64,000 nucleotides of DNA from Candidatus Omnitrophota bacterium. Its GTDB lineage: Bacteria; Omnitrophota; Gorgyraeia; Tantalellales; Tantalellaceae. The stretch spans positions 85,661-149,660 of the forward strand of contig JBAROK010000099.1 in the NCBI GenBank assembly GCA_049642065.1. Direction: 5' to 3'. Below the pieces are notes generated by a model, which saw only the letters and a program-made list of their open reading frames with translations, was not told where the DNA came from and did not search any database. Below, in pieces: positions 195 through 58,372 of this stretch. The stretch's first letter is position 1. Each line of letters opens with the position of its first letter. A program made the translations under genes and the position numbers.

Positions 195-389
195 TTACTT
201 CCCCCTTTTTGCGGAGCCTAAAGTCGCCATGCCCGCGCCTACGATAGCGCCAAGCAGAGTACTTGTCGCAGGATCCCTCGTCAAAGGACATGTCCCGCTT
301 AGAAAATTATTACACACAAAACTTGCGCCAAGACCAACTACTGCTCCGACGAACAGACCGGTCAATATCAACCAAATGTTCTTTTTCAT
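195..389 (-). CDS. small glycine-zipper membrane protein (64 aa)
   Basis: Two hydrophobic G/A-rich helices (GLFVGAVVGLGA, LLGAIVGAGMA). ATG overlaps the tex stop as ATGA (386-389), suggesting translational coupling. Confidence 0.45.
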   Translation of the reverse strand: MKKNIWLILTGLFVGAVVGLGASFVCNNFLSGTCPLTRDPATSTLLGAIVGAGMATLGSAKRGK

Positions 390-2566: not shown

Positions 2567-4590
2567 TTTTTCCCCGTTTTCTTCTTGTATTTCGCCTGCT
2601 GATGAGCAGACTCCCTTTCGTCGTTGCTCAGCAATTTCTTCAGGCGATGAATCTGATCGCGATAGACTATTGCTTTTTCAAATTGCAGATTCCTCGCAGC
2701 TTCTTCCATCTCGCCTTCAAGCTGCGCAAGCACTTCAAGAATATCATATTCTTCTTCCGTCTCACCGGTAACATCTTGGACTATCTCTTTAGCCTGCCTG
2801 TAAGCCTCAATCCCGTCTTTTATAGCCTTTTTGATGGTCTTAGGCTCTATGCCATGTTCTTCGTTATATTTGATCTGTTTTTTTCTTCTCGCATCGGTAA
2901 CATCAATGGTCCTTTTCATCGAGCCTGTTATATTATCAGCATAAAGGATAACTTCACCATTAATGTTCCTGGCAGCCCTCCCAGCTACTTGTATCAAAGA
3001 CGTCTCGCTCCTAAGGAATCCTTCCTTATCGGCATCAAGTACCGCTACAAGAGATACCTCCGGTAGATCCAGCCCTTCTCTTAAAAGGTTTATCCCAACA
3101 AGGCAGTCGAATTTACCAAGACGCAGATCTCGTATAATGTCGATCCGGTCTAGTGCATTTATTTCAGAATGAAGGTACCGCACGCGCAGTTTCATCTCTT
3201 TTAAATAACGTGTAAGCTCTTCTGCCATACGTTTTGTAAGGGTGGTAACAAGCACCCTTTCTTTTTTATCGGCACGCCCCTTTATTTCTTCAACAAGATC
3301 ATATATCTGGTTCTTCGTGGGCCGTACGGTAATCGGTGGATCTATCAGCCCCGTCGGTCTAATGATCTGCTCGGCGATTACCGAACTTTTCGAAATCTCC
3401 AAATTCCCCGGGGTTGCCGATACAAAAAGCAGCTGTTTAACAATATCCATGAACTCCTCGTATTTAAGCGGCCGGTTATCCAGCGCAGAAGGCAACCGGA
3501 AACCGTATTCCACCAGCGTCTTCTTGCGCGCCTGATCACCGTTATACATAGCGTGCAGCTGCGGTAAAGTCACATGGGATTCGTCTATTATCACAAGAAA
3601 ATCTTTCCCCAAATAATCCAGAAGACACCACGGTCGGCTCCCAGGCTCTCTGCCGGAAATATGCCTTGAATAGTTCTCGATACCGTTACAGTACCCCAAC
3701 TCGCCCAACATATCCATATCGTATTTGGTTCTCGTCTCAAGCCGCTGCGCCTCCAAAAGCTTCCCATCATCCCTCAGTTCCGCAAGCCGCTCTTTAAGCT
3801 CTACAGCTATTGACCTTATAGCGGTTTTTATTTTGTCTTCGGTGGTAACGAAGTGTTTAGCGGGATATACCGCGACTTTATCCAGATCCGTAAGGATATC
3901 TCCGCTAACAACATGTATCTCCGATATACGTGTAACCTCGTCACCAAAAAATTCCACCCGATAAGCCGTTTCCTTGTACGCCGGAAGTATCTCCACGATA
4001 TCACCGCGTACCCTGAATTTGCCGCGCTGAAGTTCCACATTATTGCGTTCGTACTGGATATCAACCAGCTTTTTCAGAAACTCTTCCCTGTCTATCTCCT
4101 GCCCCTTTTCCAGGTTAACAAGCATAGTAGAATAATCTTCCGGAGAACCTAACCCGTATATGCAGGATACACTCGCAACGATAAGAACATCATTGCGCGA
4201 AAAAAGCGAACTCGTAGCAGATAACCGCAGACGGTCTATGTCATCGTTTATTGAAGCGTCTTTCTCAATATAAACGTCGGTTTGCGGGACATACGCTTCC
4301 GGCTGGTAATAATCGTAATAACTGACGAAATATTCAACCGCGTTATTGGGAAAAAACGCTTTGAATTCCGAGTAAAGTTGCGCTGCAAGAGTTTTATTAT
4401 GCGATAGAACAAGTGTGGGTTTATTGAGGTGTTCTACGATGTTCGCCATCGTGAACGTCTTGCCGCTACCGGTGACGCCAAGAAGCGTCTGGTAAGGATG
4501 TTGCTTCCTTATGGACGCAGCGATCTCTTCTATCGCCTGACCTTGATCTCCCGCGGGTTTCAGTTCAGTGACAAGTTGGAATTTATCCAT
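2563..4590 (-). CDS. uvrB: excinuclease ABC subunit B
   Basis: 675 aa; Walker [11 protein letters not shown], helicase motifs and C-terminal UvrB/UvrC interaction region. Confidence 0.95.
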
Positions 4591-20491: not shown

Positions 20492-21091
20492 CTATTCGCC
20501 TTCAGACATTATGCGTATGCGTTTTATCGGCCAGTGTATGAGGAAGGCTTTACCTACAAGATTTCTGTCGGGGACGAACCCCCAATACCTCGAATCCATT
20601 GAGTTTGCGCTGTTATCGCCAAGAGCATAAAAATATCCTTCCGGGACGTTTATGACTTTATCGCTCTCTCCGTATTCTCCCCTGTTGTAATAGAATATGC
20701 CCCTTAAAGGAGTCTCTTCCACTTTTTTCCCGTTCACAAAAAGTTCGCCATCCGTTATCTGCACGGACTGGCCGCCGCTAGCGATGAACCGTTTGACCAG
20801 ATATTTTTTCTTTTCTACCGGAGACGTAAATACTACGATGTCACCGATATGGGGCTCACGCACATCCGGAAGCCTTATGTTCGTCAGCGGTATCCTGGCA
20901 CCATACAAGAATTTGTTGACGAAGATCCTGTCCCCTGGTTTCAGCGTCGGGTACATAGAGTTTGACGGTATCTTGAAAGGTTGAACAATGAACGTCCTTA
21001 TGAACAAAGCAAGTACTGCCGCTATTAGTATAGGTTTGATCCATTCTTCCCACCAGTAGAGCCATGCGTTTCGGTTAAATTGAAATTTCAT
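20492..21091 (-). CDS. lepB: signal peptidase I
   Basis: S26 motifs ([20 protein letters not shown]). Start taken at [10 protein letters not shown], whose ATG overlaps the lepA stop as ATGA (21088-21091); the longer track ORF is an N-terminal shadow. Confidence 0.85.
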
Positions 21092-22887
21092 GAGATTCTC
21101 ATCGCTTTTAAGAACGCTTCTTTCGGGACGTCCACCTTCCCGATCCGGCGCATCTTCTTTTTCCCTTCCTTTTGTTTCTCCCAGAGTTTTCGTTTTCGTG
21201 TTATGTCCCCGCCGTAACATTTTCCCGTAACATGTTTCTTTAAGGCAGAGATGTTCTCTCTCGCCAGAACCTCCCCACCTACCGCTGCCTGCAGCGCTAC
21301 CTTGAAGAGATGCTTAGGGATCGTCTCCTTCAGCTTATGCACCAGCTCCATGCCCATACGCCTAGCCTTATCCTTGTGCACTATCGCCGAAAGAGCGTCA
21401 CAAGGGATAGCGTTTATGAGGATCTCAAGCTTAACGATATCCGAGCGCCTGTAACCTATAACCTCATAATCTAAAGAACCGTACCCTTGCGTGGACGATT
21501 TTATCTTATCGTAGAAATCTATTATTATCTCGGCAAGCGGAAGATTATACGTAAGCTGCACCTTTGTCGGATCCAGATACTTCGTGCTTACGAATTCGCC
21601 ACGCTTGCTTTCACATAATTTCATTAAAGCTCCCATCGAGTCAGCCGGAGCGAAAACATAACATCTCACAAAAGGTTCTTCAATATATTCGATATTCTCC
21701 TTTGGGGGATATTTCGTGGGGTTATCAACCTCTATCAACTCACCGTCAGTCAACTTCATCTTGTAATTAACGCTCGGCGATGATGCGATAAGATCAAGAT
21801 CGAATTCACGTTCGAGCCTTTCCTGGATGATCTCCATATGCAATAGCCCTAAAAATCCGCAACGAAACCCGAACCCAAGAGCTGCTGAAGTTTCAGGTTC
21901 GTATATGAAAGATGAATCCGAGAGGCGTAGTTTTTCCATAGCGCTTTTAAGATCCTCATAATCTTCGTTGCTTACAGGATAAATGCCGCTGTAAACCATG
22001 GGTTTCACCTGTTTATATCCCGACAGCGGCTCTTCCGAGGGATGCGCAACGTCAGCTATCGTGTCACCCACGACCACCTCTTTAGCTTCTTTAATATTGC
22101 AGACAATGTATCCTACCTGACCGCAATCAAGCTGATCAACAGACTGCTCGGTTGGCGTGAACACGCCGACTTCTTTTATTTCGTATTCAGTGCCCATATT
22201 CATCATCTCTATCTGCATACCACTTTTAAGGCAGCCGCTCATAACACGCACATAGATAATAACTCCCCTGTAGGTATCATATGAAGAATCAAATATAAGC
22301 GCCTGCAAAGGTGCGTCCTGTTTACCTGTCGGCGGAGGCACTCTCTTAACTATCTCTTCAAGCACTTCTTGCGTTCCCGTACCTTCCTTAGCACTTATAA
22401 GTATTATCTCATCCCCATCGACGCCAGCAATCTCTTCCATCTGGCGCGTGACTTCTTCTATCCTCGCACTTTTTAAGTCTATCTTGTTTATTATTGGGAT
22501 TATTTTCAGGTCATGCTCCATGGCAAGATACAAATTAGCGATCGTCTGGGCTTCAACGCCCTGAACCGCATCCACCACTAAAAGAGCTCCCTCACATGCG
22601 GCTATACTTTTTGAGACCTCATAGGAGAAATCTACGTGCCCCGGAGTATCTATGAGATTTAAAATGTAGGTGTTTCCGTCTTTTGCTTTGTAGATTATCC
22701 TGACCGCGCTGGACTTAATGGTTATTCCTCTTTCTCTCTCGAGGTCCATATTATCCAGGAACTGGTCACGGAATTCCCTGCCGTTGACGGTATCAGTAAG
22801 CTGTATGATCCTGTCGGCAAGAGTACTCTTGCCATGATCAATATGGGCAATTATGCAAAAATTCCTTATTCTTGAAAGGTTATCCAT
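21088..22887 (-). CDS. lepA: elongation factor 4 (LepA)
   Basis: 599 aa; G-domain AHIDHGKST and LepA-specific C-terminal domain. Confidence 0.95.
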
Positions 22888-44215: not shown

Positions 44216-47200
44216 TTACGCTCTTGAAGCTATATATTGGCGTATGTCTCTGTAAAGGCCTCTGTCTCCGGGAAGCTTGACCGCCCCGGGTATGAGTTTA
44301 ATGACCATTGTGGTCCTGTAGGTTTCTGTTACAGGGTCCCAACACCTTTGCCAGATGGCGTCATCATCCAGATTGAGACTGTTGCTTATGTTCCTGTAAC
44401 AGCGTATGAGGTTCTCCCTGTCATACTTGAGCGCGCGGGCAACCGTAAAGAGAACTATTTCTACTAACGGGTAATAAAAACCGTCCGTAAGTTCCTCATC
44501 ATCTATTCCGGTGATAGTTGAAGCGCCTTCAAACCCCTTGAAATACGCCTCGCGGTTCGTTTCGTTAGTGATTATTATGATGTTCTCCTTGCCTACATCG
44601 CCTCTATCTACAAGAGATTCCAAACCGCTCGAAAGAGAGTCGGCCTTGCCGTGGCGTATCACTACGTTACGCAGTAAATCGCTCAGCTGGTCATCCCCTA
44701 ACGCAAGATGGCTTAGCGCGTCCATTGTTTTGCGAAGCTGTTTTCGTGTCCAGCCAGAACCAAGTTCCTGGTCGATCGCTATAACTATTTTTTTGCCGTG
44801 ACCAGCTGTCATGAATCCATTCACCATTTCCGGTACCACGTGTTCCATCTTGCCCATTACGTCCGTACTGGGCAGCTCTTCGTAAGCGGGGCCGTCTGTA
44901 GCGGTAAACTCGTATTTCTTTTCATCAAGCTCCCAAAAACACGCACCGCCTTCGTCTTCAGCCAGCGTCTCCCATTCATAATCTGTATCATCAAAAACAA
45001 CGCTCTGCCATCCTTTTCTTTTGAACGGGAACTCATAATGTTCCCACAGGTTGACAGGCCTCAGTGATATCTTCATATTCCTGTATCTTCTTTCGATCCG
45101 GTCCTTATGCGAGGCGTAAAACAATTCTATCCCTAGGTCCTTAGCTGTATTGACCATACACCTCAGAGCGCTTTCTACCCATTTTCTGTGTCTCTCTCTG
45201 ACCTTACTATCGGTCATTTCCCTGTAACCCCTAGAAGCCTGCATTTCATCGAACACAATCGCCGGCCTTCTGTCTACAATCTCGAACTTGACCTCTATCT
45301 GGCCAAACGACCCTTCCGGACCGATAAACATCTGGGCCGCAGCCGCGTCAAGCACCCCAAGTTCCGGATGTTCTTCCCTGTAAGATGTTTCCGGAGCCAC
45401 AACAAAATTTTCAAAATCCTCGTCATATACAACAGTGGCATGTACTTTATGACCGCGAGCTATCCAGGAAATATCCTGTTTTTCACTAAAAACCTTAATA
45501 AACCGCGCTTCTATCTCTTCAATGTCCAGTCGCGATTTTTCTGTCCCCACCGGCTGGTCTGCTTCTAAAGATTCAACGAGAGCTTCTTCAGCATCTTCGT
45601 ATATATGTCTTTTTAGGTTCATGCGGACAGTCGTTCCACTGCCGGTTCCCGGTTGCGATGTGACTACGCCCTCTGGTATTCCATTAGCATCCCTTATCCC
45701 GTTGAACATGAGTTCCTTCCCTAAAGAAATTAAAGTAAGGCTGTCTTCATTGAGGTTTTTCAAAGGAATAGCAGCAACAAATATACCCCTGCCTCCGGGC
45801 AAGAAGAGACCTTCATCTTTGATATGTTTCATTTGCCTCATCATCCCACTGAGGTCGCATCCTATACCGTTATCTTTCGCAAAAAACTCTATAAGAATCT
45901 TGTCATCTTCACGTCGTGCCCTGCAAGCTATCACCCCAAAAACATCTCTCTCATTTTCGGCTATACCCTCCTTGGAATGCTCTATTATATTCAACGCGAA
46001 CTCTCCGAACGACTGCTTAAGCTCAAGAGCTTCATCAACCGAAAGGCCCATACCTGTTAGCCACTCGGTTACACTATACTGAAAAGCTATCAGCTTATCG
46101 GCCGGGGCATTAAGATGCTCCGCGTCTTTTATGCTTTGACCCATCAGGGCAATAGCTTTAATATCACTCTGTTCATTCACCTTAGCTAAGAGCTCTTCAG
46201 TCTTTTCGATAACTCCATATTCTACAGATTCTTCTAAATCACAGAACACGTCTTCCGAAAGTCCTACATCAAAATCTTCAGGAATCTCCTCAGGTTGAGG
46301 CCTGTTCCTGTAAATAAGCATACGTGTCTTTCCAAACCTTGCATCATCAACCATCTCCAGCCTGCTGAAAGGACCTCCCGGCATAGGACTATTAATAACA
46401 AACAGCGCTCCCGGCTTGAGTTCTCTTACCAACTTATCTTCAAGTCTTCTTTTCATCTCACGTTCCACATTCCTGTGATATAGCGGCCAGAATATGTACA
46501 CCAGATCGTACTGTGAAAAATCTTCATCAAAATAATTACCTTCCTCAAGCTCTACATTGCTCATATCCATCTTATCACTAAGATCACGTATACACGCTTC
46601 GCCTTCGGCATGTAAGGGTGCGTCCTGCTCTATACCTTTAACGTATCCGGCATACCTTGAGAAAATAGAAACAGCCTTGGCAGTCCCACTGCCAAGGTCA
46701 AGTGCACGTTTGTCTTCATCCAGGAATGCCTTTGCCACTAAGGCTATGTCTGGTGTCTTTGAAGAGGTAAAAATACCCCCTCTTGCTGTGGCTTTTGCCA
46801 CGGTGAGGGTTTTAGTGTTTTCCCCTGTCTGGTAATACCTGTCTATTAAACCAACGGCTTCATCGGGTGATCCCGGTACTTTTGAATGAGTAAGAACGTC
46901 TTTCAAGGTTACTCTTCCCAGTTTGGTGCCAGAAATGCCGCATATGATATGGCTTATAAAGGCTGGCACAAATGATTTTCTAAAGATCTTATTAAAAAAT
47001 CCGTCAATCACAGGATGCCTTCTGGCAAAGCCACGCACTCTCTTCCGGATCCAAACCTGTCTTGCAACTTCGTGAAGGATCGCGATTACAGCCAAAGCAC
47101 CAAGCACTACACCGATAGTGATACCGCTATCTGCAAAACCTAACCCTACTAATGAGTGTGCATAGGAAGTACGGCTCTCACCGGTATACGTAAGAGAACC

Positions 47201-50200
47201 CAAGTTCACATCCGGTATGTGGTCTACTACTGCAAACCCTTTATCCAAAGTATCAACGGTCATATCAATCTCTTCCTGCAATCCTGCTAAGAGAGCCCCT
47301 CTGTGACCACTCGGATGAGATATAGTCCTTATCATCTCTACCTCTATCTCTATCATCTTCTTGTGATTCGCAAGGATCCGCTCAAGAAACTTTATATTCG
47401 GTATAAACTCAATATAATCTTTTGCGAAGTTCATATACCCGATTGTCCTTACCCATTCGCGCGTACTTGTTAGCCTGTTCCGTAACCAATCAAGGATCTT
47501 TGCCGGATCAGACTCGGCATGGATCCTGTTATTCTCATCTTCCATTTCCAGGATCTCTCTACTAAGCTTTGACATCCGGCCGGTAATATCTTCTACCTTG
47601 ACTTTATCTTCACCCGCATTACCAAGCTCTACTCTCAAGGATCTGAGTTTATTGTGCGCAAAACCTGTCTCAATGTTACATCTCTCTACAGCCTGTGCTA
47701 ACAATAAATCCCTTTCTCCAAAAAGACGGAGAATCCTCGCAGCCAGTGCAGACATGTTCTCCGGATCCACCTCTATTAATTTCTCGAACGCTTCTTTTGT
47801 GATATATATATCACTTGTATCAACCTCTACATGCGTATCCTGCCCTGTCGAAAAGACAGGCGACTTAACATCACAGATGAATATACCTTTCTCTCCAGCC
47901 CGATAGTCCTTATCCGCGGAAAAGTTATCGAGTCTATTAGCTACAGTTTCGATAAACATGCGCTTCTCAACTGCTTTTGTCTTACTGGAATCATACGAAT
48001 CCCTGTGGGTATGAGCTTCTGCATACTGCCTCTCCATCTTCTGATATATATCTCTGAGGGTTTGGACCTGAGCATCCCTCATCTTTCGGAAGCTGCCAAG
48101 ATAATCTCCCCATAATGTTGAAAGCATCTTGGCATGCCCTTTCTTATATATTGTTTCATTTATTCCTATTTCTTTTCTGACTGTGTTAATAGCTCTCTGT
48201 ACAGTAAGCAGTTTTATCACCATCGCAGAATCAAGGTACCTGGCGGCACCCTTAGCGTTTCTGCTCTGCACGAATCCGTGCATATCATCCGTCACTAACT
48301 TTAAATGACGTTCTATTGCCACCCTTGATACTTCGACCACTCTAGCGTTAGCGTTATCTTCCCTGGCACCAAAAAGCCACCACATCATGACATTAATATT
48401 CTTCAAAATAACGTTTTCACGGGGATCAAGAGTATGCGTCTGCGAATACGTGTTGAGTTGTTCGAGACATTTCGCCATCCTGTAAACGTTCTCAAGGAAC
48501 ATGTCCAGCGACGCTTCGTCTATCCTGACTGTATCGACATTCTGAGTAAACTGAAGCATATGTTCGTAAGCTTCTTCTCCTGCGATTACTGTTGTATTAG
48601 ACCTAGAAAAAGATGATGGGTCACCTTGACTGCCAGCATCGTTAAGTAAATTTATTTCGGCCGCAATAGCATCCATCTTTGTCTTAATAGCGAAAATCTG
48701 CTTAGAAATACCCTGCATAGCGTTAAGATAAGTAGTTTCTTCCTCGCGTATCCTCATCGATTCTTTTCTCAGGTAAGATACCATGCTCCTTAACACGTTC
48801 TTGCCAAGCTTCTGTTCGGCGCCCTTAAGATGTGTGGTCTTTTTCTTGCTAAGACGTTTTATTTCTGCATCCAGTTTTTCGTGTTCACCCATAATGTCCA
48901 GATACCCCGGCATGGTACCAGCGGACCGCTTGGATCTACCCCCGAACAGGCTACCAACATCTTCACCTCTTCCGATACGAGATATACCCCGCATTCTTGT
49001 ATCCAGAGTTACTCCCACACCCGTCGCTTCTACCGCCCGGTTATGAGCTTCCGTCCAATGCATAGACGGGTTCAACCTCCTCTCTTGGACTTCTTTTAGC
49101 TCATGACTTATAACATCTTTATTCAGTTCAGACTGGAACCCTACTATCCTCCATATACCGTCAGAGCCTTTAAAATTTATCGCACTTACTCCGCCTTCGG
49201 GTTTTATTACCCGTCTGCGGACGGTCCTTGCCACCCTCATGATCGAGACGGCTAACTTTTCATCCACCGTAGTCTTATCGATATAATCAACTGTTTCATC
49301 CTTAATAGTAACTATCCAGGTCCCATCCTTAAATTCTCTCTCCGTAAGACCACGCTTGTCGAGATACCTTAGCCAGGCTTCTACAACATCCCCGCTAAAC
49401 GCCATACCTTTTTTATCCCTGAGTATACTAAGAATACTTTCTAAACGGTTAAACGCGCTTATATCGGAAACTTCTGCGCCAAGATCTTTTTCTGATGGGC
49501 CCTCTTCCGCCTTCGGTTCGGTTTCAACAGGACTACTTGAAGGTTCTTCAGGTTTTCTGTATATCGTTAATCTCCTTACATCTGGTACCGTAAATGGCGG
49601 TTCCACCTCTTCAAGCTCCGAAAATTTTTCGGTATCCGTGGCGCTTATTATCACAAAATGAGCTCCGGGCTTAAGTTCTTCTAAGAGTTTTTCCTGCAAT
49701 CTATCTTTTACATAATCCCTGTATTTGTCTTCACCGTATTCCGGCCAAAAAATATAAATAAGATCGTATTTTGAGAGGTCTTCATCAATAAGGCTACCGT
49801 AATACAGTTCTATCTTTCCGTTATCCACGATATCAGCAAGATCTACAACACAACTCTCACTTTCCGCGAGAAGACTAAGATCGTTTTCCACCCCCTTAAC
49901 ATGTCCGGCATACCGGGAGAATACCGCTACAGCTTTACCTGTGCCGCTACCCATATCAAGCGCGCTCTTATTCTCATCCAACAGCCACTCTGACAATAGC
50001 TTGAGATGCCCAGTGGGAGAAGCTATGAAATGTCCGTCACCTACGGTATGTTTATATCCAGTCACTCTCCCTGCTCCTTCACCTTCATCGTAATACCTGC
50101 CAATGTGCGCTACAGCTTCATCTTGAGAAAGCTTGCCTGAAATATCCTCCATCCCCACAGTCCGGCTGATAACATCATAAGACCTTTCCCTGGGAGATCC

Positions 50201-53200
50201 GTTCCAATGCCTGTATATCCATTCGCGGAGTATCCATATGCGTTCTTTAGTGCTCTTTATTGTTTCGGGAGGGAGTCCCGGAGTCAAACCCACCAGCATA
50301 TTCGTGTATATATCGTTCATGGTGGCTTTTGCACCGTTAAAAGCGGTTACTTTTCTCAAGTCCTTGCGAAACCAGTTGATTCCGGGATAATGCGACAGGA
50401 ATCTTTTCGCAAGATCATCCATTGAAAGTGCCGAATTTTCCTTAACGAACCCTTCTTCCCAGTCTTCTTCAAATATTCCCGGCCATTTCACAGGATTAAG
50501 CGCTTCGCCGATCAGCTGCCTGTATCTCTCCGCCATGTCACCTGTTAGCTTCCGCTGGGCTACGGTATCAATGTACTCTTTCCACATTTCGCGCCAATAT
50601 ATGTCAAGACGCGCAACGTCCGTAAGGTTCTCTACCTGGGGCGGAACTGACGCAACCTTTAAAAGCTCTCCCTCTTGTTCTTCGTTCAACCCTGCATCCT
50701 TTGACAAGGCGCTTAAGAACCTCCTCCAATGCACGCTTGAAAGTGCGTCTAAGCTGGTAAACCCTTTCAAATCATATTCAAGTAAAATTTCATACACATT
50801 AGCGTATTTCTTTTTCTTTTTCTCGATGGCTTTCGTAAGATCAGGTATACTGTCCGCTTCGATCATTCTTACCAAGTCAAGCATCGCCGGGAATAACGGA
50901 CTATCGATCTTTTTGGAGGGTTTCGCAGGATCAGGCATATTCATACTTACATACGCGGCAAGATAAAACGTTGTCCATAGAAGGCGTGGCGATCCCCTTC
51001 CTATATTATTATCGCGCGCAAATTTTAGATACCGGTTAAAGTCTTCGGTAAATATCCTGTCATAATACGCTTCAGCTTTTCCCTGAAGTCTTGCGTCCAC
51101 ATACTTCTCTCTTAATCCATCCATAAAGGAATCCAGAAGCACCATTGACCTAACTCTTTCTTTCATTATTCCGATATTTCTTCTTACAGTGTTTTCCTTG
51201 CCAGCAGTATCAATATTGTTTATAGCCTGCCATAACACGGGAAGCATGCGGTGGAATTCAGGTTCGCTTTTAATATCGTTATCACGGGTCATGCCCATCA
51301 TCCAGTCGCGTGCTTTCTGCCTGTTACCCGCCTCGAACATCTCGAGTATTCTATCCAGTTTCCATATAGTCCTGCTGTTGCGCGCACGTACGTACTCACG
51401 CAATATAGCAAGCCGGCCGGTTCTTATCTTATCTATCTGTTTAGTAAGCGAAAAATGACGTCTTCTGAGGAGGCTCCTTGCGGCCATCATCTCTTCCAGC
51501 ATGCTGCGATATTCGCCCAGATCCAATAGTTCCAGCGCGAATTCACAAGCGGTATGAGTAATAACCTTCTCCTCCACCTGGGCTCTTTTTAATGACTCTG
51601 TTATCTCTGAAAGCAATACCCTCATGCATTCTTTTTCTTCATCAGATACTTCCGGCTGCGGAAGAGGTTCTCCTGTTTTAGCAGAAGGAAGAGTTCTCCT
51701 CCTCTGGTCAAGAATATCTATATATTCCTTCATTCTCTTGCCGATACTAAGCACCCAGTCCCGTTCCCTGAGTATATTATCGATCTCCCTATCACATGAG
51801 CGTATACCCTGCCAGATAGTCTCAGATCTATGAGGTATCCATTCTTTTATAAGCACGTCCCTATCAGCGCTTATTCCATGGCTTATATACTGCCCGCGAA
51901 GCACATTATGGAGTTTATCTTCAACATCTTTCCAAACCCTTGGCCCACGCATTTTGACCTTCGTTTTGGACAGCTGTAGAAGCTCTTCTGCGAACCTCTG
52001 TTTAGCAGCACGAAGCAAAGCCGAGGCAGCAGGCTCGTTCTTCTTTTCCATCATTTCAATAGCCCTGCGCATTTTATCCTTGGCTTCTGCGCGATAATCC
52101 CTGTCCCCGGTACGCTTAAGCTCATAATCAGGCGGGGTTATAAGTTCTTCTTCCAGAGTTATCTCAGTTTTAAGAACCTGTATCCTTTGCTGGCATTTTT
52201 CAAGCTGTTCTTTCTTATCCGCGTTCTCTGGATCCTGTTTTAATTCTTTTTCCAGGGTAACCCTTTCAGCACCCAGACGTATAAGACGAAGGTTCATCTT
52301 CGGAAGAGCTCTGAGATAATAATAGGTAAGATCCTCCCCTTCAGCAAAGACTTGGCTGTCTAATTTCGCTTTTACCCATACCAGTTCTTCCTCGCTGGGC
52401 CTCGGTGAAAGCAAATCAAGAACTTTCCTTATCGAATCCAAATGCTTGCCAGCCCTGCGGTATCTTTCAGTGAGGGTAAATTCTATAGGTTCAAAAGGCT
52501 CTGAAGGCCTACCTGCGTTCAATATGCCCAGAGCTACCATACCGTCAAGTTCTGATTTTATCGTCCTGTAAGAAAAAGGGTTCCCATCTTCATTCAGTCT
52601 GCACGGTCCGAATGTAATGCTGGTGAAAACTGATTCCCTGAAGTCCTTGTTAGCCATTACTGTATTAAATCCATCAAGGACATTTCCCGAAGCCGGACGC
52701 CTTTTCTTCTTCTTTGCCATGCTCTCCGGCATCTCGGAATCCTCTTCTTCCGATTCTTCCTTTTCTTCCCGTCTGGTGCGATGTCCATGTCTTAACAAAA
52801 GAAGCACTGTAACCAGAAGCAGATATGGTATCAGTGTCCCAAAAATAGAATTAGAGGACATTTTGCCATCTGCCATACTGCAACTACCGCCTGAACGGCC
52901 TTCATCGGGAGACTGCCCTGCTGATATCGTTACAGGTGTTGAATAATCGCTGTCCCTTTGCGGGTCAGGCACTTCAGTGCGTATGCTAAGGTTATAAGTT
53001 CCCGAATAGATATGATCAGGAAGGTCTATGACGGCTGAGAAAGTTCCCGCACCTGCGATATAGAAAGTCTCCCCTCCTATATTAATGGTGTAACCTGTCA
53101 CAGATCCGGCCAATGCGCCCGTATACGGCTGCCAGGTAACTGTAAAGGTCCTGCTTCCGTTGCTGTCGGTCACACTCACTAAGTCTGGCGGGAACGGTCT

Positions 53201-56200
53201 TTGCGCTGCCGAATCGTACCAGTGCCTTATCGTATCGGCCTGAGGGTCTGTTATGGTAAAACCTGTAGTATCCTGCCAGAAGAGTCCACCACCATCAACG
53301 GCACTCCCATAGATATCGTCCAGTTTTCCTGAAACACCGGTCGGTTCAAGTTCCCCGAAAAAGAATCCAAAACTCGTTAGCCCGGAACCCCAGGTCGATA
53401 TATCATCCGTAAGAGGATACCACGGCACCATATAATCATAATAATGCGCCTGGTCAATATCCTGGCCAAGTCCTGTCCAGTTATCAAGAAGTATCTGCCG
53501 GCTCTGGGCCCCTATAGTAACTCGAGACCCGGAATCTTCCGCGTGTATCATATTAATGAAATCGGTTATAAAGATCTGTACCTGCGCGACGGTCAGGGAA
53601 GTAGAAGTGGTTATTTCTATAGGCTCGTTTAAAACGTCCCACATCTCTATCTCAGGACGTCCCGCATAACGCTGGATAAACGGCCTTATGACGTTGATCA
53701 AAGCGGCTCGCTTAGCATTATCTGTTATAAGATCCGGATATTCGCCTACCGGATTAGGCCCTTCCATGTTGATATTATCGGCTATCATGTAATCGAGTAC
53801 TACAGGGATAAGTCTTATTCCCAGAACCTGCGCCGCTTCCACAAGAGCATCCATATCGTCAAACACGTGTGTGCTTAGACCCGTAGGAGTTCCGCCACCA
53901 TCAAAAGTAACACCGCTTCTTAAGTCACAGAAAATAAATACACGTACCGCAGAGCCCTTGAACCTGTTGAGCTGCTGCAAAAGCTGCGCCCTTTTCGTGT
54001 TCAGCCCTTCGTATGTCTCACCGTTAACGCCGTCACCAATGTCGTACCCATACTTTAACCATGGCAGGTTAGCCCCGCGATAGAATTTCCAGCCCGGAGT
54101 TAATTCTTCCACTACTTCCTGTATATAATCATGCCTATCCTGCCTGCCGTCAGGATGATAAGCCATCATCTCCGTAAGATTCCAGGACCCGTCGTACTCA
54201 TAAGTACGTATAGTCCCATCAGTATCCCTTTCGGCGTTTACATACTGGTTACCCGAATCAAGATGATACGAAGCTCCCGCGCCACTGGTATAAGTTTTAA
54301 TAGCAAAAGTAGCACTTATCGTTTCGTAAACGAAAACCGGACTTCCTCCGGAGGTGTATCCTCTTATGTAATGTATGTTATCAGTTCCCGTGTAATATTC
54401 GTATTCCTCATAACTCCCGTCAGGATGCGTTTTCCTGTCAGGCCTTCCGTAATCGTCTGAAAGGTTGACGGGCGTACCGTTATCATAAAAAGCTTCATCT
54501 ATCCTATGAACAACGGTTCCCGCAGGCACATCGTCCGAAGGATCTGCCGGTGTATCACCATCCCAGTCATCTAGGTACGTTTCAGTTTCGATATATCCTG
54601 ACGGTGAATGATAAGTGTACGAAAGGTTCGCCGGCGCCGCAAAAGCCGTAAATGGTAAAAGCAATAAGACAAGTATAGAAAGAAGAGTATTCGGGAATAT
54701 ACGGTCTATACGGCTTTTTCTTTGTTTCGGCGTATCGGTCTCCCTCGCCCCCAACCCTTTTATCATGATCAGAATATGATAGATCTCCCACATCTTTTCG
54801 ACTTCGAAATATTCGAAATTCATGTTGCCAAGCTTTTTATGAAGAAGCCTGGCAACCTTAAGAAAGTTTACCTCTTTACCGCTGTCCAGAGCTTTCTTGA
54901 CCGTTAGGCCCTTCTCCAATTCTATGGTGTTCCATGGCACTCTACCGTCGGGTTCCGTGATAGTAAAGGTTCGGTACCCATCTTTCAACAAAAGACTGAT
55001 ATTAACACTTACCACTCCGAGCTTTTCTACAAGGTCTGGATAGAACGTATACGCAACTGCTTTATCCAGGAATATCTCCATACCCGGAGTATTAAAAAGT
55101 TCGTTCTTTTTAAGTTCATCACGCAACCTTTTATTTTTAGCTTTTTTCTCACGGGCTTCGCGCCACTCTTTCATGATGTTAGCTATACTTGCTTTTTTCT
55201 CACGAATATTATTCTTGCACCTTGCCAGAGTATCCGCTGCGAACTGCCGGATCCATATGACCAAACCCAACGGAGAATACCATAGAGCCACTCCCAGATT
55301 CCTTACTCTTACATCTACCTTGACCCGGTTTTTACCCGCTTTCCAACCGTAAACATGGATACCAGGCGCTATATGCTTGTAATACCCCCGGCTATCTTTC
55401 TTTATATCGTGATTAAGCCCTACTCTCCGGTGATCACCCTCGGGCAATAGCAGATACTTCTTCCATTCTTTTCTGGCCGTAACTATAGACATTAGCAGCT
55501 TTGCGTTCTTTACAGGTATGGCTACCACTAAAGCAATAATGACTCTACCTATTCCCCTCACGAGTATTATGGGAAGATACAATAGTTGGGCAAGGAATTT
55601 GAAAAATACCGTTTCTGTTCTAGCTTTTCCGTTCGCATCTTTTGACACCTCTACTACTACACCTCTGGCAATACTCACGAAATGGTTATACCCCTGGTAC
55701 CGGGCATTGTATCCGGCCTTCTCCTCCAACTTTCTACGTTCTTCCGGATCCTTTTCAAGAAGATATTTTTTGAGGAATATCTTCGCCTTGAGGATCTTCA
55801 CACACAGGTTCAGGTTCAGAAGAGCTATAATGCCAGCTCCTACTGTCAGGAACGCAGTGAACCCGCTGACCTCGGCAGGGAAAAACGGTACTGTTCCGTA
55901 CGCATAATTCCGCGGGTTGGGTCCACCACCTTTCGAATCCCAGAGCACTTTCTCAATATAAGTTTTCGTATCGAAAACTGATTGAGGGTCAATTTCATCG
56001 CCTAAGTTATAGAGAACGGTCCTTATAATCTCTATCCTGTCCTGCGGCAAGGTGTAAAACCTGTCATCCAGCTGGTATACCGGTGGTTTCATGCGCGAAG
56101 CAGTTGCACAAAGAACTCCCATCTTTCCCAGGAGTTCAAGCATATAAACCACCGTTCCCATCCCGAACTCTGACTGTCTTGCTTGCATAAATTCGGCTAC

Positions 56201-58372
56201 AGTAAAAGAATTCCTGCTCAAGATATCATCCGCCATCACAGCATCGAACACTTTAAGGATGTTGTTTCTTCTATCTACGAACTCCTGCGGAGGCTGCTCC
56301 TGGGCCGGGCTTACAATAGTTGGACCTTCTTGGGGTTTTATCAGAACGGGTTCTAGTGTACGTTTAGGTTGCGCTTGCGGCTTATTTGCCGGCTGCACCG
56401 GTTTCCTTACTATGCCTTGCTTAAGTTTTTCATCGATCATCCTCTCCCACAGAGGTTTCGCTTCTGTTTCCAGCCTAGCGCGTTCCCGTTTAGCATCTTC
56501 ATCGGAAAAATCCCTTATAGCCACCAGAAGCAAGTAAAGCTCTTCAGCATCAGCCGGTTTTGGATCCAATACGTTTACTGAAGCAGCCAGAGCACTGAGC
56601 ATCTTGTAAAGGCCCAAAAGATCATTGGGTTCCTTGTGCAGTAATACTGTTCCCAGCCTCTTCTTATCGCTTCCTACCTTCAGTGAATCAAGCGCCTTTG
56701 CCTGCGGCACCTTTATAAAATTATATCCATCATCCTGCACACGGCACATTTCCATACAAGCGCTGCGAAGATGTGTCATGACCGTGGAAACGGATTTTGT
56801 GCTAAGCCCCTGGGTAGCCCCTACTCTTGCTACCAGGTCTTTAAAATTCATATTCGAGAGCAACAATGTATCTTCCAGCATAGCCGTCAGCTGTTTTTCT
56901 CTCTCTGCTTTAACCTTCTTTTTCTTAAGTGCAAGCAATATCCTGACGGGAAAATATATAAAAAACATCCTGCGGCCTAAATACAAAGTTTCTGTACGTC
57001 CGGTCTTACTAAATCCTCTTGGAGTAAATACCCTGACGCCCCTGGTAATTACTATCGATAACCTGCCTTCTTTGGGCTGGATATTCCATTTAAACATCAG
57101 CTTTTTCTTTTTCTCCGCGTCCTCTTCAGCCATGTATTTTGAAAGGCGACCTTTAGCCCGGTATATCTTTACTAGGACCTTTACGTTATCAATAAGAAGT
57201 ATCGTCAGTATAAATGCCGGGATAAGAAGCCATGGGCTTATATTTGCCACTAAGGACATTGGGAGAACGGCTGGCGCGACAGAAAGGTCGGTATCGTCTT
57301 CATCCTCATCTGCTCCACCTTCTCTAGCTTTTCTTGTAAAAATATAATCGTATCCTGCTATGAGATCATATTGTTTCTGTTGTTTTATACTTGTCCTTGC
57401 CTCGAAAACAGCCCTTGAGTGAGAAGATTGTCTTAAAAACGCTATCCTGTCCTCTTCCTTTTCGACCCTGGTTCTCACGCTAACAACGGATCTTTGCATA
57501 TCTTCATAAACATATCCGCCGAGACCCGCGTTCATTTTCATTAATTCGTTGAGAGAGTACTGGAGATTAAGACCTTCAAACACTATTATCTGAACGCCCT
57601 TCCTGTGAGGCGTCCAAAGATCTCGACTGAGCCTAGGAATATTTATAGTCCGATCCGGCTTAACGTAATTGTCGATCGATATCACCTTACACGAGCTTAT
57701 TTTGTCCTTTATCCCTCGTGCAACAATAGTGGTCTTTCCCGAGCCCGGATTTCCATCAATAAGCACCATGACTTTTTTGCCGGAGCCAGTTACATCCTGT
57801 ATGCGGGTGATTATCGGATCGATCGTATCCGTTTTAACATCGCGTTGCAGTTTTTTAGCTTTTTTCTTTATGGGCGCAGGAGAAGCTTCCTTCTCCTCTT
57901 TCTTTAAAAGCTGGCAGCTCAGATAATCGTTTATGGTCTTTTCCCATGCCACTTTCGTAATACCATCAGGCAAAACTAGTCCCGTCATGCGTGGGTTAAA
58001 ATATCTCAGAACACAATCATCCGATATGCGGACAAATACCTGCCCTTCCTCGGCGCCACCTTCCACGCGGATACTCGGCTGGTCTAATTGTTCGGAAGCG
58101 ATCTTGCGGATACGATCCAGCATCTCTTGCACTCCGGCAAGCGGCATATTCCTGAAATCCTTTGACATTACCAGTTCCAGATATTTAGCCGTAGCCCTGG
58201 CTATAGAGTCTGAAGTATCGTCTGAAGTTAAGAGTGTCTGTTGTGCAAGAGTATTTACTGAAGGTCTTGAGGAAGGATATGCCCATGCAAAATCGTAGGA
58301 AATAAAGCATATAAGCGTTATTACCGCGACTACACGAAACAGTATTCTTTGTCTGGTCCTCTCCAAAAACAT
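44216..58372 (-). CDS. giant (4718 aa) multidomain polytopic membrane protein
   Basis: Single uninterrupted 14,157-nt ORF on the minus strand. Domains in order: N-terminal signal-anchor TM; uridine-kinase/PRK-like P-loop (Walker A GNPGSGKTT); several TM helices; extracytoplasmic segment with YD-repeat-like motifs, a clan GH-A (GH5 mannanase-like) core (RGANLPW, WDVLNEP, HYY, GELEP) and a beta-rich Ig/FN3-like region; long helical cytoplasmic regions; two duplicated PCMT-like SAM-methyltransferase modules (IASPTGH...LDMGSGTGKAV and LDLGSGTAKAV); a GHKL ATPase-like module (DNGIG, GGRGIF). Confidence 0.85.
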   Translation of the reverse strand: MFLERTRQRILFRVVAVITLICFISYDFAWAYPSSRPSVNTLAQQTLLTSDDTSDSIARATAKYLELVMSKDFRNMPLAGVQEMLDRIRKIASEQLDQPSIRVEGGAEEGQVFVRISDDCVLRYFNPRMTGLVLPDGITKVAWEKTINDYLSCQLLKKEEKEASPAPIKKKAKKLQRDVKTDTIDPIITRIQDVTGSGKKVMVLIDGNPGSGKTTIVARGIKDKISSCKVISIDNYVKPDRTINIPRLSRDLWTPHRKGVQIIVFEGLNLQYSLNELMKMNAGLGGYVYEDMQRSVVSVRTRVEKEEDRIAFLRQSSHSRAVFEARTSIKQQKQYDLIAGYDYIFTRKAREGGADEDEDDTDLSVAPAVLPMSLVANISPWLLIPAFILTILLIDNVKVLVKIYRAKGRLSKYMAEEDAEKKKKLMFKWNIQPKEGRLSIVITRGVRVFTPRGFSKTGRTETLYLGRRMFFIYFPVRILLALKKKKVKAEREKQLTAMLEDTLLLSNMNFKDLVARVGATQGLSTKSVSTVMTHLRSACMEMCRVQDDGYNFIKVPQAKALDSLKVGSDKKRLGTVLLHKEPNDLLGLYKMLSALAASVNVLDPKPADAEELYLLLVAIRDFSDEDAKRERARLETEAKPLWERMIDEKLKQGIVRKPVQPANKPQAQPKRTLEPVLIKPQEGPTIVSPAQEQPPQEFVDRRNNILKVFDAVMADDILSRNSFTVAEFMQARQSEFGMGTVVYMLELLGKMGVLCATASRMKPPVYQLDDRFYTLPQDRIEIIRTVLYNLGDEIDPQSVFDTKTYIEKVLWDSKGGGPNPRNYAYGTVPFFPAEVSGFTAFLTVGAGIIALLNLNLCVKILKAKIFLKKYLLEKDPEERRKLEEKAGYNARYQGYNHFVSIARGVVVEVSKDANGKARTETVFFKFLAQLLYLPIILVRGIGRVIIALVVAIPVKNAKLLMSIVTARKEWKKYLLLPEGDHRRVGLNHDIKKDSRGYYKHIAPGIHVYGWKAGKNRVKVDVRVRNLGVALWYSPLGLVIWIRQFAADTLARCKNNIREKKASIANIMKEWREAREKKAKNKRLRDELKKNELFNTPGMEIFLDKAVAYTFYPDLVEKLGVVSVNISLLLKDGYRTFTITEPDGRVPWNTIELEKGLTVKKALDSGKEVNFLKVARLLHKKLGNMNFEYFEVEKMWEIYHILIMIKGLGARETDTPKQRKSRIDRIFPNTLLSILVLLLLPFTAFAAPANLSYTYHSPSGYIETETYLDDWDGDTPADPSDDVPAGTVVHRIDEAFYDNGTPVNLSDDYGRPDRKTHPDGSYEEYEYYTGTDNIHYIRGYTSGGSPVFVYETISATFAIKTYTSGAGASYHLDSGNQYVNAERDTDGTIRTYEYDGSWNLTEMMAYHPDGRQDRHDYIQEVVEELTPGWKFYRGANLPWLKYGYDIGDGVNGETYEGLNTKRAQLLQQLNRFKGSAVRVFIFCDLRSGVTFDGGGTPTGLSTHVFDDMDALVEAAQVLGIRLIPVVLDYMIADNINMEGPNPVGEYPDLITDNAKRAALINVIRPFIQRYAGRPEIEMWDVLNEPIEITTSTSLTVAQVQIFITDFINMIHAEDSGSRVTIGAQSRQILLDNWTGLGQDIDQAHYYDYMVPWYPLTDDISTWGSGLTSFGFFFGELEPTGVSGKLDDIYGSAVDGGGLFWQDTTGFTITDPQADTIRHWYDSAAQRPFPPDLVSVTDSNGSRTFTVTWQPYTGALAGSVTGYTINIGGETFYIAGAGTFSAVIDLPDHIYSGTYNLSIRTEVPDPQRDSDYSTPVTISAGQSPDEGRSGGSCSMADGKMSSNSIFGTLIPYLLLVTVLLLLRHGHRTRREEKEESEEEDSEMPESMAKKKKRRPASGNVLDGFNTVMANKDFRESVFTSITFGPCRLNEDGNPFSYRTIKSELDGMVALGILNAGRPSEPFEPIEFTLTERYRRAGKHLDSIRKVLDLLSPRPSEEELVWVKAKLDSQVFAEGEDLTYYYLRALPKMNLRLIRLGAERVTLEKELKQDPENADKKEQLEKCQQRIQVLKTEITLEEELITPPDYELKRTGDRDYRAEAKDKMRRAIEMMEKKNEPAASALLRAAKQRFAEELLQLSKTKVKMRGPRVWKDVEDKLHNVLRGQYISHGISADRDVLIKEWIPHRSETIWQGIRSCDREIDNILRERDWVLSIGKRMKEYIDILDQRRRTLPSAKTGEPLPQPEVSDEEKECMRVLLSEITESLKRAQVEEKVITHTACEFALELLDLGEYRSMLEEMMAARSLLRRRHFSLTKQIDKIRTGRLAILREYVRARNSRTIWKLDRILEMFEAGNRQKARDWMMGMTRDNDIKSEPEFHRMLPVLWQAINNIDTAGKENTVRRNIGIMKERVRSMVLLDSFMDGLREKYVDARLQGKAEAYYDRIFTEDFNRYLKFARDNNIGRGSPRLLWTTFYLAAYVSMNMPDPAKPSKKIDSPLFPAMLDLVRMIEADSIPDLTKAIEKKKKKYANVYEILLEYDLKGFTSLDALSSVHWRRFLSALSKDAGLNEEQEGELLKVASVPPQVENLTDVARLDIYWREMWKEYIDTVAQRKLTGDMAERYRQLIGEALNPVKWPGIFEEDWEEGFVKENSALSMDDLAKRFLSHYPGINWFRKDLRKVTAFNGAKATMNDIYTNMLVGLTPGLPPETIKSTKERIWILREWIYRHWNGSPRERSYDVISRTVGMEDISGKLSQDEAVAHIGRYYDEGEGAGRVTGYKHTVGDGHFIASPTGHLKLLSEWLLDENKSALDMGSGTGKAVAVFSRYAGHVKGVENDLSLLAESESCVVDLADIVDNGKIELYYGSLIDEDLSKYDLIYIFWPEYGEDKYRDYVKDRLQEKLLEELKPGAHFVIISATDTEKFSELEEVEPPFTVPDVRRLTIYRKPEEPSSSPVETEPKAEEGPSEKDLGAEVSDISAFNRLESILSILRDKKGMAFSGDVVEAWLRYLDKRGLTEREFKDGTWIVTIKDETVDYIDKTTVDEKLAVSIMRVARTVRRRVIKPEGGVSAINFKGSDGIWRIVGFQSELNKDVISHELKEVQERRLNPSMHWTEAHNRAVEATGVGVTLDTRMRGISRIGRGEDVGSLFGGRSKRSAGTMPGYLDIMGEHEKLDAEIKRLSKKKTTHLKGAEQKLGKNVLRSMVSYLRKESMRIREEETTYLNAMQGISKQIFAIKTKMDAIAAEINLLNDAGSQGDPSSFSRSNTTVIAGEEAYEHMLQFTQNVDTVRIDEASLDMFLENVYRMAKCLEQLNTYSQTHTLDPRENVILKNINVMMWWLFGAREDNANARVVEVSRVAIERHLKLVTDDMHGFVQSRNAKGAARYLDSAMVIKLLTVQRAINTVRKEIGINETIYKKGHAKMLSTLWGDYLGSFRKMRDAQVQTLRDIYQKMERQYAEAHTHRDSYDSSKTKAVEKRMFIETVANRLDNFSADKDYRAGEKGIFICDVKSPVFSTGQDTHVEVDTSDIYITKEAFEKLIEVDPENMSALAARILRLFGERDLLLAQAVERCNIETGFAHNKLRSLRVELGNAGEDKVKVEDITGRMSKLSREILEMEDENNRIHAESDPAKILDWLRNRLTSTREWVRTIGYMNFAKDYIEFIPNIKFLERILANHKKMIEIEVEMIRTISHPSGHRGALLAGLQEEIDMTVDTLDKGFAVVDHIPDVNLGSLTYTGESRTSYAHSLVGLGFADSGITIGVVLGALAVIAILHEVARQVWIRKRVRGFARRHPVIDGFFNKIFRKSFVPAFISHIICGISGTKLGRVTLKDVLTHSKVPGSPDEAVGLIDRYYQTGENTKTLTVAKATARGGIFTSSKTPDIALVAKAFLDEDKRALDLGSGTAKAVSIFSRYAGYVKGIEQDAPLHAEGEACIRDLSDKMDMSNVELEEGNYFDEDFSQYDLVYIFWPLYHRNVEREMKRRLEDKLVRELKPGALFVINSPMPGGPFSRLEMVDDARFGKTRMLIYRNRPQPEEIPEDFDVGLSEDVFCDLEESVEYGVIEKTEELLAKVNEQSDIKAIALMGQSIKDAEHLNAPADKLIAFQYSVTEWLTGMGLSVDEALELKQSFGEFALNIIEHSKEGIAENERDVFGVIACRARREDDKILIEFFAKDNGIGCDLSGMMRQMKHIKDEGLFLPGGRGIFVAAIPLKNLNEDSLTLISLGKELMFNGIRDANGIPEGVVTSQPGTGSGTTVRMNLKRHIYEDAEEALVESLEADQPVGTEKSRLDIEEIEARFIKVFSEKQDISWIARGHKVHATVVYDEDFENFVVAPETSYREEHPELGVLDAAAAQMFIGPEGSFGQIEVKFEIVDRRPAIVFDEMQASRGYREMTDSKVRERHRKWVESALRCMVNTAKDLGIELFYASHKDRIERRYRNMKISLRPVNLWEHYEFPFKRKGWQSVVFDDTDYEWETLAEDEGGACFWELDEKKYEFTATDGPAYEELPSTDVMGKMEHVVPEMVNGFMTAGHGKKIVIAIDQELGSGWTRKQLRKTMDALSHLALGDDQLSDLLRNVVIRHGKADSLSSGLESLVDRGDVGKENIIIITNETNREAYFKGFEGASTITGIDDEELTDGFYYPLVEIVLFTVARALKYDRENLIRCYRNISNSLNLDDDAIWQRCWDPVTETYRTTMVIKLIPGAVKLPGDRGLYRDIRQYIASRA

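Follow-up and report, generated by a model that had tools for sequence, protein, structure and literature searches.

Does the giant membrane protein encoded in this stretch of Omnitrophota DNA carry a glycoside hydrolase outside the cytoplasm, and on which glycan might such an enzyme act? The stretch, referred to below as the window, comprises 64,000 nucleotides (nt) of contig JBAROK010000099.1 from a Candidatus Omnitrophota metagenome-assembled genome (MAG). The protein of 4718 amino acids (aa) is encoded on its reverse strand by a single uninterrupted open reading frame (ORF), in which residue i begins at nt 58372-3(i-1). An initial annotation, made from the letters alone, proposed that positions 52847-54634 (aa ~1247-1842) encode an exported loop with a clan GH-A core. 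It was found that aa 1249-1841 are likely to form an extracytoplasmic cassette whose GH5 barrel is catalytically complete and most similar to the GH5_10 beta-mannanases, as judged from sequence comparison and a predicted structure. The GH5_10 likeness refers to the nearest solved structures at ~20% identity and is not a placement in the CAZy subfamily tree.

In the proposed arrangement, an internal signal-anchor helix would be followed by acidic YD-repeat-like hairpins, the GH5 barrel, an FN3-like domain, a Gly-Cys linker and finally a stop-transfer helix with a basic cluster (Table 1). The GH5 module would work on the outside of the cytoplasmic membrane, which in a diderm cell means the periplasm, and the remainder of the giant protein would stay in the cytoplasm or in the membrane.

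A GH5-Type Catalytic Barrel

The sequence motifs on which the initial annotation relied were all found where it had placed them, at aa 1432-1438 (RGANLPW), 1476-1483 (VRVFIFCD), 1491-1494 (DGGG), 1578-1584 (WDVLNEP), 1641-1645 (QAHYY) and 1672-1679 (FGELEPTG). When the loop sequence alone was compared with the Protein Data Bank (PDB), the GH5 beta-1,4-mannanases 3VUP, 4OOU and 2C0H were matched with E values from 1.7e-8 to 9e-6, and these alignments ran up to the NEP motif. A profile of nine domains of the family covered the whole barrel and matched 2C0H (E 2.5e-27), 3VUP (5.9e-27), 4OOU (2.1e-26) and 5Y6T (2.4e-25). The profile alignment pairs NEP with NEP, H-x-Y with H-T-Y, GE with GE and FW with TW, and covers both catalytic Glu positions.

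A model of the barrel was made with AlphaFold2 (AF2) from an alignment of 103 sequences. It reached a predicted local distance difference test score (pLDDT) of 89.7 and a predicted template modelling score (pTM) of 0.89, and its eight strand-helix units form the (beta/alpha)8 TIM-barrel fold of GH5 and clan GH-A. A Foldseek search of the PDB with this model ranked GH5_10 mannanases first, the best match being 4OOZ_B (E 3.6e-16, template modelling score 0.75). The top 10 were GH5 mannanases throughout, with fungal GH5_7 mannanases and then GH164 beta-mannosidases at lower ranks. The structural comparison with mannanases that had been suggested at the outset thus returned GH5 mannanases as the best PDB matches, and together with the whole-barrel profile match and the two aligned catalytic Glu residues it upholds the clan GH-A, GH5-type core.

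Seven residues are highly conserved in GH5, namely Arg, Asn-Glu, His, Tyr, Glu and Trp, of which the two Glu serve as acid/base and nucleophile (PMC4237917). All seven are present in the barrel and in order, as R1477, N1582, E1583, H1643, Y1645, E1674 and W1699. Across 265 homologous domains each is conserved at 98-100%, with the Tyr at ~93%. When only the domains that cover a given column are counted, the Arg is kept in 256/256, the first Glu in 254/256, the His in 245/247, the Tyr in 229/246, the second Glu in 238/243 and the Trp in 215/216. The model places E1583 at the end of beta-4 and E1674 at the end of beta-7, which is the arrangement of clan GH-A. The scan of the loop with Pfam and NCBIfam models gave no match to a GH5 model and only one to GH10, with E 0.19, around NEP.

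By its family membership, the GH5 module would be a retaining (double-displacement) endo-beta-glycanase or transglycosylase, with E1583 as the acid/base and E1674 as the nucleophile. The double-displacement chemistry is presumably the same as in the GH5_10 mannanases, and transglycosylation has been reported for both GH5_7 and GH5_10 mannanases (PMC4237917). The enzyme would act on a beta-1,4-linked glycan. Because every top structural neighbour is mannan-active, a beta-1,4-mannan-type glycan is the best guess for the substrate, although a tentative one.

Location of the Loop

The loop lies between two hydrophobic helices. The signal-peptide-like transmembrane segment with an AxA-like end, noted at the outset, was found as LLLPFTAFAAPA at aa 1237-1248, and the second helix at the other end of the loop is likewise hydrophobic. 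The sequence KQRKSRIDR precedes the first helix and an uncharged or acidic stretch comes after it, while RHGHRTRR follows the second helix. These flanking charges would correspond to the positive-inside pattern of an in-out-in hairpin. The composition of the loop resembles that of a secreted protein: aa 1249-1841 contain 1.5% Lys, 5.9% Lys plus Arg and 37% Ser, Thr, Gly, Tyr and Asn with a net charge of -50, whereas the other segments of the giant protein contain 6-12% Lys, 13-20% Lys plus Arg and 21-25% of these five residues with net charges from -38 to +22. Among the close homologues of the barrel, signal peptides are found in P0002, P0003 and P0005 and a lipobox in P0006; in P0112-P0116 and P0119 the barrel has one helix ~100-250 aa upstream and another ~30-130 aa downstream. 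YD and FN3 domains are typically extracellular modules.

Since the flanking charges, the composition, the close homologues and the domain types all point the same way, even though each is an indirect line, the loop is likely extracytoplasmic. The earlier claim that about 600 aa lie outside the cytoplasm is borne out to this extent. Omnitrophota are taken to have an outer membrane together with type II secretion or Tad systems (10.1101/2023.11.21.568195, PMC10066038). In a presumed diderm, a loop tethered at both ends would therefore lie in the periplasm and would not face another cell. The enzyme would then probably trim or remodel the envelope or an exported polysaccharide, or degrade glycan fragments that reach the periplasm. 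Of the functions that had been proposed for the module, remodelling of the envelope or of exopolysaccharide is compatible with such a periplasmic role, but attack on another cell would need release or further export.

Flanking Parts of the Loop

The barrel is flanked on both sides by segments for which the assignments are plausible but weak. The start of the loop holds two copies of the acidic motif (D/N)GTP(A/V/G)(D/N)(P/L)SDD(Y/F/V)(G/P), which is found also in the RHS-repeat homologues P0002 and P0009 and might bind calcium or serve as a linker in these YD-type proteins. In an AF2 model of the whole loop (pLDDT 73 overall), loop residues 99-176 (aa 1347-1424) form eight beta-strands, with block pLDDT values of 66-90, mostly 81-90. 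The YD-repeat-like motifs that had been noted upstream of the barrel are found here as GTIRTYEYDGSWNLTEMMAYHPDG at aa 1386-1409, and the modelled hairpin array fits with them, but the support from hidden Markov models (HMMs) is weak and is obtained with the N-terminal part alone. TIGR01643 (YD_repeat_2x) scored 19.7 bits (cutoff 15.8, E 8.9e-4) at loop aa 132-154 only when aa 1249-1414 were scanned by themselves, and the E value was 0.79 with the whole loop. The Pfam model RHS_repeat (PF05593) gave no match in the query; four homologues do match it.

The Ig/FN3-like stretch that had been described downstream of the barrel was placed at aa 1726-1818. Its beta-strands are in line with the description, but the HMM score is marginal and the confidence of the AF2 model is low (pLDDT 45-65). 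Ig_RIMBP2 scored 27.9 bits (cutoff 27) on this segment alone and 23.5 bits in the context of the loop, and the fn3 HMM matched the corresponding region below its threshold in 5/5 orthologues.

Recurrence of the Cassette

When the barrel was used as the query of an exhaustive phmmer search, 1017 cluster representatives were returned at E<=1e-3, and 106 of them reached E<=1e-30. Two architectural classes were recognized: multi-helix giants in which two helices enclose the barrel, and long proteins with a signal peptide and without flanking helices, several of which carry YD motifs. A full-length ortholog (P0112, 4986 aa) is 76% identical in the barrel and 54.6% over the whole protein. The loop is conserved above the average of the protein and is its best-conserved region (77-80% identity), in comparison with 36% and 57% for the methyltransferase modules. 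Two further giants (P0114, 3508 aa; P0115, 6377 aa) have modules in common with the protein in a different order. In P0115 the entire cassette with its two helices keeps 55% identity, whereas the remainder is shuffled and barely alignable; at aa ~3750 of this protein SEP replaces NEP, with the Glu kept. Because the loop is best conserved in the ortholog and the cassette is kept in P0115, purifying selection on the cassette seems to be indicated, and the cassette has possibly been exchanged between proteins. Two GH5-like barrels are present in P0116 (5101 aa), at ~aa 2152-2448 and 3691-4138, and two more proteins with the barrel (P0205, P0254) exceed 7000 aa each.

A search of contigs from related genomes with the single loop sequence gave no match. 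When an alignment of closer sequences was used as the query instead, 7 loci were returned, from Omnitrophota, 'Planctomycetia'-labelled MAGs, Hydrogenedentota and Acidobacteria.

Among the bins of the giant ORF, GC content peaks (0.472) in the 2-kb bin 52001-54000, which holds most of the cassette, and the GC skew of this bin (-0.112) is among the least negative. This base composition fits weakly with a cassette that has its own history.

Alternative Explanations

Several observations weigh against the proposed assignment and its location. The curated GH5 model of Pfam (PF00150), a kind of match that the initial annotation had put forward as a check, does not match the query even at E<=1, nor the domain alone, and it reaches just 7/103 members of the family. 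With no Pfam or NCBIfam GH5 match, the family assignment rests on the profile-to-PDB and structure comparisons, in which the identity to solved enzymes is ~20% (17-22%). At least one GH5_10 enzyme is a xylanase (PMC5576741). At this level of identity, and with such a xylanase among the relatives, the earlier term 'mannanase-like' holds for the nearest solved structures, all of which are mannanases, but mannan specificity is only the best guess. As to location, 66/102 of the more distant homologues stand alone, and their length of 338-355 aa leaves no space for a signal peptide, so that part of the GH5-like family is probably cytoplasmic. Hydropathy and charge give no self-consistent topology for all 7-8 helices of the giant protein, and topology predictions for Omnitrophota giant proteins have been reported to be unreliable (West-Roberts et al., 10.1101/2023.11.21.568195). 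Finally, genes for polysaccharide synthesis, secretion or import were not found in the annotated parts of the window (0.4-28.6 kb and 32.8-63.4 kb), and the genomic context therefore gives no clue to the substrate.

The alternative that survives best is that the giant protein is a polyprotein from which the cassette is processed. Signal peptidase I would cut at A1245|A1246, the Cys before the downstream helix would be lipidated and a CPBP-type protease would remove that helix, so that the GH5 enzyme is freed and could reach the surface. A Pro...small-x-small sequence, which has the pattern of a candidate signal peptidase I site, ends the upstream helix in 8/9 of the listed helix-flanked homologues, although the helix itself has diverged; it is seen as PFTAFA|AP in the giant protein and as PVLVYA|AP, PFSAWA|AP, PPRAWA|AA, PFKVLA|AA and PFKSAQA|Q elsewhere, it is lacking in P0116 and P0205, and P0001 has ...GRAAEG. 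A-x-A-like ends are, however, common in hydrophobic helices. At the other boundary, seven proteins, all of the cassette class, have G-G-(S)-C 10-17 residues before the downstream helix and a Lys/Arg cluster after it, and the whole loop of the giant protein contains just two Cys, one of which is C1831.

This boundary resembles the MYXO-CTERM and JDVT-CTERM tags, which are Cys-containing C-terminal signals that are cleaved by CPBP-family myxosortases and tied to surface display through type II secretion (10.1101/2023.06.07.544157; PMC11980579). Both have a Gly/Cys signature, a hydrophobic helix and an Arg-rich cytoplasmic cluster at the end of an exported domain, and GGSC (1828-1831), the helix at 1842-1860 and RHGHRTRR have the same tripartite layout (PMC11980579). 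In one homologue (P0120) the tag scored below threshold, with 13.6 bits for MYXO-CTERM (cutoff 20) and 12.1 bits for GC_trans_RRR (cutoff 15.85). A gene for signal peptidase I is present in the window (20492-21220), and cleavage of giant proteins was raised as a possibility by West-Roberts et al. (10.1101/2023.11.21.568195). Against processing, the tag of the giant protein itself matches no NCBIfam CTERM model, it is internal with ~2,850 residues after it, and no GH homologue that was retrieved has such a tag at its true C-terminus. To our knowledge, the known sorting tags are all C-terminal. Genes for a CPBP protease or type II secretion were not found among the annotated ORFs of the window either. 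On balance, the processed cassette is unlikely, and the tethered loop is preferred. A different route to a separate secreted protein, an internal start at Met1203, was rejected: no Shine-Dalgarno-like sequence precedes it and the Met is not conserved in P0113 or P0114.

Considerably less probable is a cytoplasmic enzyme. In that case the hydrophobic segments would fail to cross the membrane in the assumed way, and a cytoplasmic glycan or glycoconjugate would be the target of the GH5 domain. The distant homologues mentioned above, which begin right at strand 1 of the barrel, fit with such a location, as does the unreliability of topology predictions for proteins of this kind. They include a standalone clade (P0007, P0008, P0010 and ~60 others) in which the barrel starts 12-25 residues from the Met with no signal peptide; its members come from Acidobacteria/Vicinamibacterales, Eremiobacterota and unlabelled metagenomes, are mostly missed by Pfam and are presumably cytoplasmic. 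The neighbours of one of them (P0056) encode a TPR protein, peptidases and kinases, and nothing among them points to a substrate. In one member of 569 aa (P0107) the GH5-like domain is fused to an S-adenosylmethionine (SAM) methyltransferase, and methyltransferase modules also occur in the giant protein. However, a cytoplasmic location would leave unexplained the positive-inside pattern at both sides of the loop, a composition sharply unlike that of all other segments, the signal peptides, lipobox or same two helices of the nearest relatives, and YD and FN3 flanks of a typically extracellular type.

A degenerate GH5 barrel that merely binds glycan on a partner or prey cell without hydrolysis would suit the frequent proposal of Omnitrophota giant proteins as adhesins (PMC10066038), the YD and FN3 flanks, which are compatible with adhesion, and the SEP of P0115, but it is highly improbable given the seven intact signature residues, both catalytic Glu among them, whose near-invariance in the 265 domains argues for purifying selection on catalysis and not on binding alone.

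The Remainder of the Giant Protein

The coordinates of the cassette and of the other features of the ORF are collected in Table 1.

Table 1. Features of the giant ORF, with nucleotide positions in the window and residues of the encoded protein.
Feature	Position (nt)	Residues (aa)	Strand	Remarks
Giant ORF	44216..58372		-	4718 aa; hydrophobic helices, P-loop motif, two methyltransferase modules, HATPase-like domain
N-terminal leader ILFRVVAVITLICFISYDFAWAYP	58289-58372	1-28	-	Basic start, hydrophobic stretch, (F/L)xW..Q..(A/V)WA(G/Y/S/N)
P-loop NTPase motif VLIDGNPGSGKTT	57659-57793	194-238	-	Weak Pfam matches nSTAND3, Zeta_toxin
Internal duplication	56927-57250 and 55529-55870	375-482 and 835-948	-	30% identity, E 6e-9
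Upstream helix NTLLSILVLLLLPFTAFAAPA, predicted internal signal-anchor	54629..54691	1228-1248	-	KQRKSRIDR before; Pro...A-x-A end (AFA aa 1243-1245, nt 54638-54646)
Asp/Tyr/Thr/Gly-rich N-terminal part of the loop	54335..54628	1249-1346	-	(D/N)GTPxxxSDD(Y/F)GR motifs; low AF2 confidence
YD-repeat-like beta-hairpin array	54101..54334	1347-1424	-	Immediately before the barrel
GH5-type (beta/alpha)8 catalytic barrel	53228..54085	1430-1715	-	
N1582-E1583-P1584, predicted acid/base Glu	53621..53629	1582-1584	-	Aligns with NEP of GH5_10 2C0H, 3VUP, 4OOU; C-terminal end of beta-4, model strand 163-168
E1674, predicted nucleophile (FFFGELEP)	53351..53353	1674	-	Aligns with GE of 2C0H, 3VUP; end of beta-7, model strand 256-261
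FN3/Ig-like beta-sandwich	52919..53197	1726-1818	-	Ig_RIMBP2, sub-threshold fn3, weak PDB FN3 matches
Conserved Gly-Gly-Ser-Cys	52880..52891	1828-1831	-	~11 residues before the downstream helix
Downstream helix (predicted stop-transfer) and basic cluster RHGHRTRR	52769..52849	1842-1860 and 1861-1868	-	
SAM-methyltransferase modules (paralogous pair)	49529-50128 and 46280-46870	2749-2948 and 3835-4031	-	Weak Pfam PCMT, Methyltransf_11, Methyltransf_25
Histidine-kinase-like ATPase domain near the C-terminus	45776-46096	4093-4199	-	HATPase_c_2 E 1.7e-3, under cutoff

The giant ORF is not an assembly artefact, since the same 4718-aa protein is also encoded in independent assemblies (Logan SRR7066494, Logan SRR28062874 and a 230-kb ENA contig). 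Its 90% identity cluster contains the NCBI MAG protein MGB2652090.1 (4716 aa, 'hypothetical protein [Candidatus Omnitrophota bacterium]'), and the RecA encoded in the window is identical to that of an Omnitrophota MAG. No competing long ORF was found within 52847-54634 on either strand, the largest overlapping one having 109 aa, and a scan of 42-60 kb for Rfam families gave zero matches. The ORF is embedded among genes for SMC, a GGDEF cyclase, CinA, LigT, RecA, AlaRS, LepA, signal peptidase I, UvrB and ValRS and among genes for His (as an operon), Trp, Thr and Leu biosynthesis. Because these neighbours are housekeeping genes, the locus belongs to a bacterial chromosome and not to a mobile element.

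By hydropathy, the protein has 7-8 hydrophobic helices. A self-BLAST of the whole protein returned the self-match alone, and its two internal duplications emerged only from a chunked search. One of them is the pair of SAM-methyltransferase modules, which are 50% identical to one another (E 1e-43). The co-occurrence of methyltransferase and HATPase domains as a module in long Omnitrophota proteins was described in a 2026 preprint (10.64898/2026.06.07.730766). The other duplicated module is made up of a hydrophobic helix, a Lys-rich 'AK..LKKYL', a beta-like 'RGV.V...RTET' and a second hydrophobic segment, and is a complication for any simple topology count. By a positive-inside count from helix 1, the P-loop segment would be extracellular, an implausible location for an NTPase; the composition of this segment is cytoplasm-like.

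The leader at aa 1-28 resembles a signal peptide or sorting motif that is specific to the lineage. A regular expression for its motif matched 19/96 long GH-bearing proteins, with ~14 distinct proteins being clear cases across both architectural classes; the leader is present in P0112, P0114, P0115, P0116, P0122, P0128, P0130, P0135, P0136, P0143, P0165, P0214, P0218 and P0242.

Relation to Known Systems

Subfamily GH5_10 includes the structures 2C0H, 3VUP and 4OOU (PMC4237917, PMC5576741). The mannanases of this subfamily (Mytilus edulis Man5A, 2C0H; Aplysia kurodai AkMan, 3VUP; Cryptopygus antarcticus CaMan, 4OOU/4OOZ; Eisenia fetida, 5Y6T) share with the barrel the RGxNxxW motif of strand 1 and the placement of the NEP acid/base, the GE nucleophile, the H-x-Y and the Trp. 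In contrast to these enzymes, the domain of the giant protein is ~35-45 residues shorter, without long insertions after beta-4 and beta-6. It also comes from a bacterium, as part of a giant membrane protein, whereas its GH5_10 relatives are free secreted digestive enzymes.

Giant multi-helix Omnitrophota proteins with glycosyl hydrolase and methyltransferase modules have been reported before (10.1101/2023.11.21.568195; PMC10066038; 10.64898/2026.06.07.730766). The Archaeovorin-type proteins (West-Roberts et al. 2023; Seymour et al. 2023) come from the same phylum and likewise combine a long ORF, multiple transmembrane helices and a mix of methyltransferase and GH domains with mostly unannotated sequence and modules that are shuffled between homologues. 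Unlike the published set, which has at least 30,000 aa, the protein described here has 4,718 aa; it has no match to Pfam SecA_DEAD, a divergent form of which is part of the Archaeovorin definition, and type II secretion genes were not found in the annotated parts of the window. In architecture it is best called a smaller version of the Archaeovorin type, to which it is related, but it is not a member of the group as defined. The GH folds reported on Archaeovorin-type proteins are GH76-like and cellobiose 2-epimerase-like (10.1101/2023.11.21.568195), and the terms GH5, cellulase and RHS do not appear in the text of either Omnitrophota preprint (10.1101/2023.11.21.568195; 10.64898/2026.06.07.730766). 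What is new here is a remote GH5 clade within a known class of modular giant proteins.

A functional analogy exists with periplasmic hydrolases of exopolysaccharide systems such as PslG, which we take to be a clan GH-A retaining glycosidase that is held at the cytoplasmic membrane and faces outward. It is an analogy only, and would suit the trimming of a polymer exported by the cell. PslG is a small, single-domain protein encoded in a polysaccharide-synthesis cluster (PMC9075953), whereas the GH5 barrel is part of a loop in a giant protein with no such cluster nearby.

Significance

The giant proteins of Omnitrophota are abundant and almost wholly unannotated, and the roles in predation or cell-wall degradation that are ascribed to them rest on few identifiable domains. 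A compact domain of ~290 aa with all catalytic residues intact offers a concrete activity that can be assayed. The predicted topology limits the reach of a doubly tethered module, and claims of an attack on prey surfaces require a release mechanism, for which the A-x-A and Gly-Cys motifs would be specific candidates in the processing of giant proteins. If such processing were true, the secretion machinery would release the exported modules of Omnitrophota giant proteins, which would then be polyproteins, and the Gly-Cys boundary would be the first case in which a CTERM-type sorting signal is used inside a protein.

The GH5-like module is widespread, with ~1,000 sequence clusters, many of them in long proteins of Omnitrophota and in related proteins and few of them caught by the Pfam GH5 model. 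A bacterial origin of the animal GH5_10 mannanases was suspected in an earlier study, which left the question open for lack of bacterial sequences (PMC5576741). The closest solved relatives of the bacterial module are these animal mannanases.

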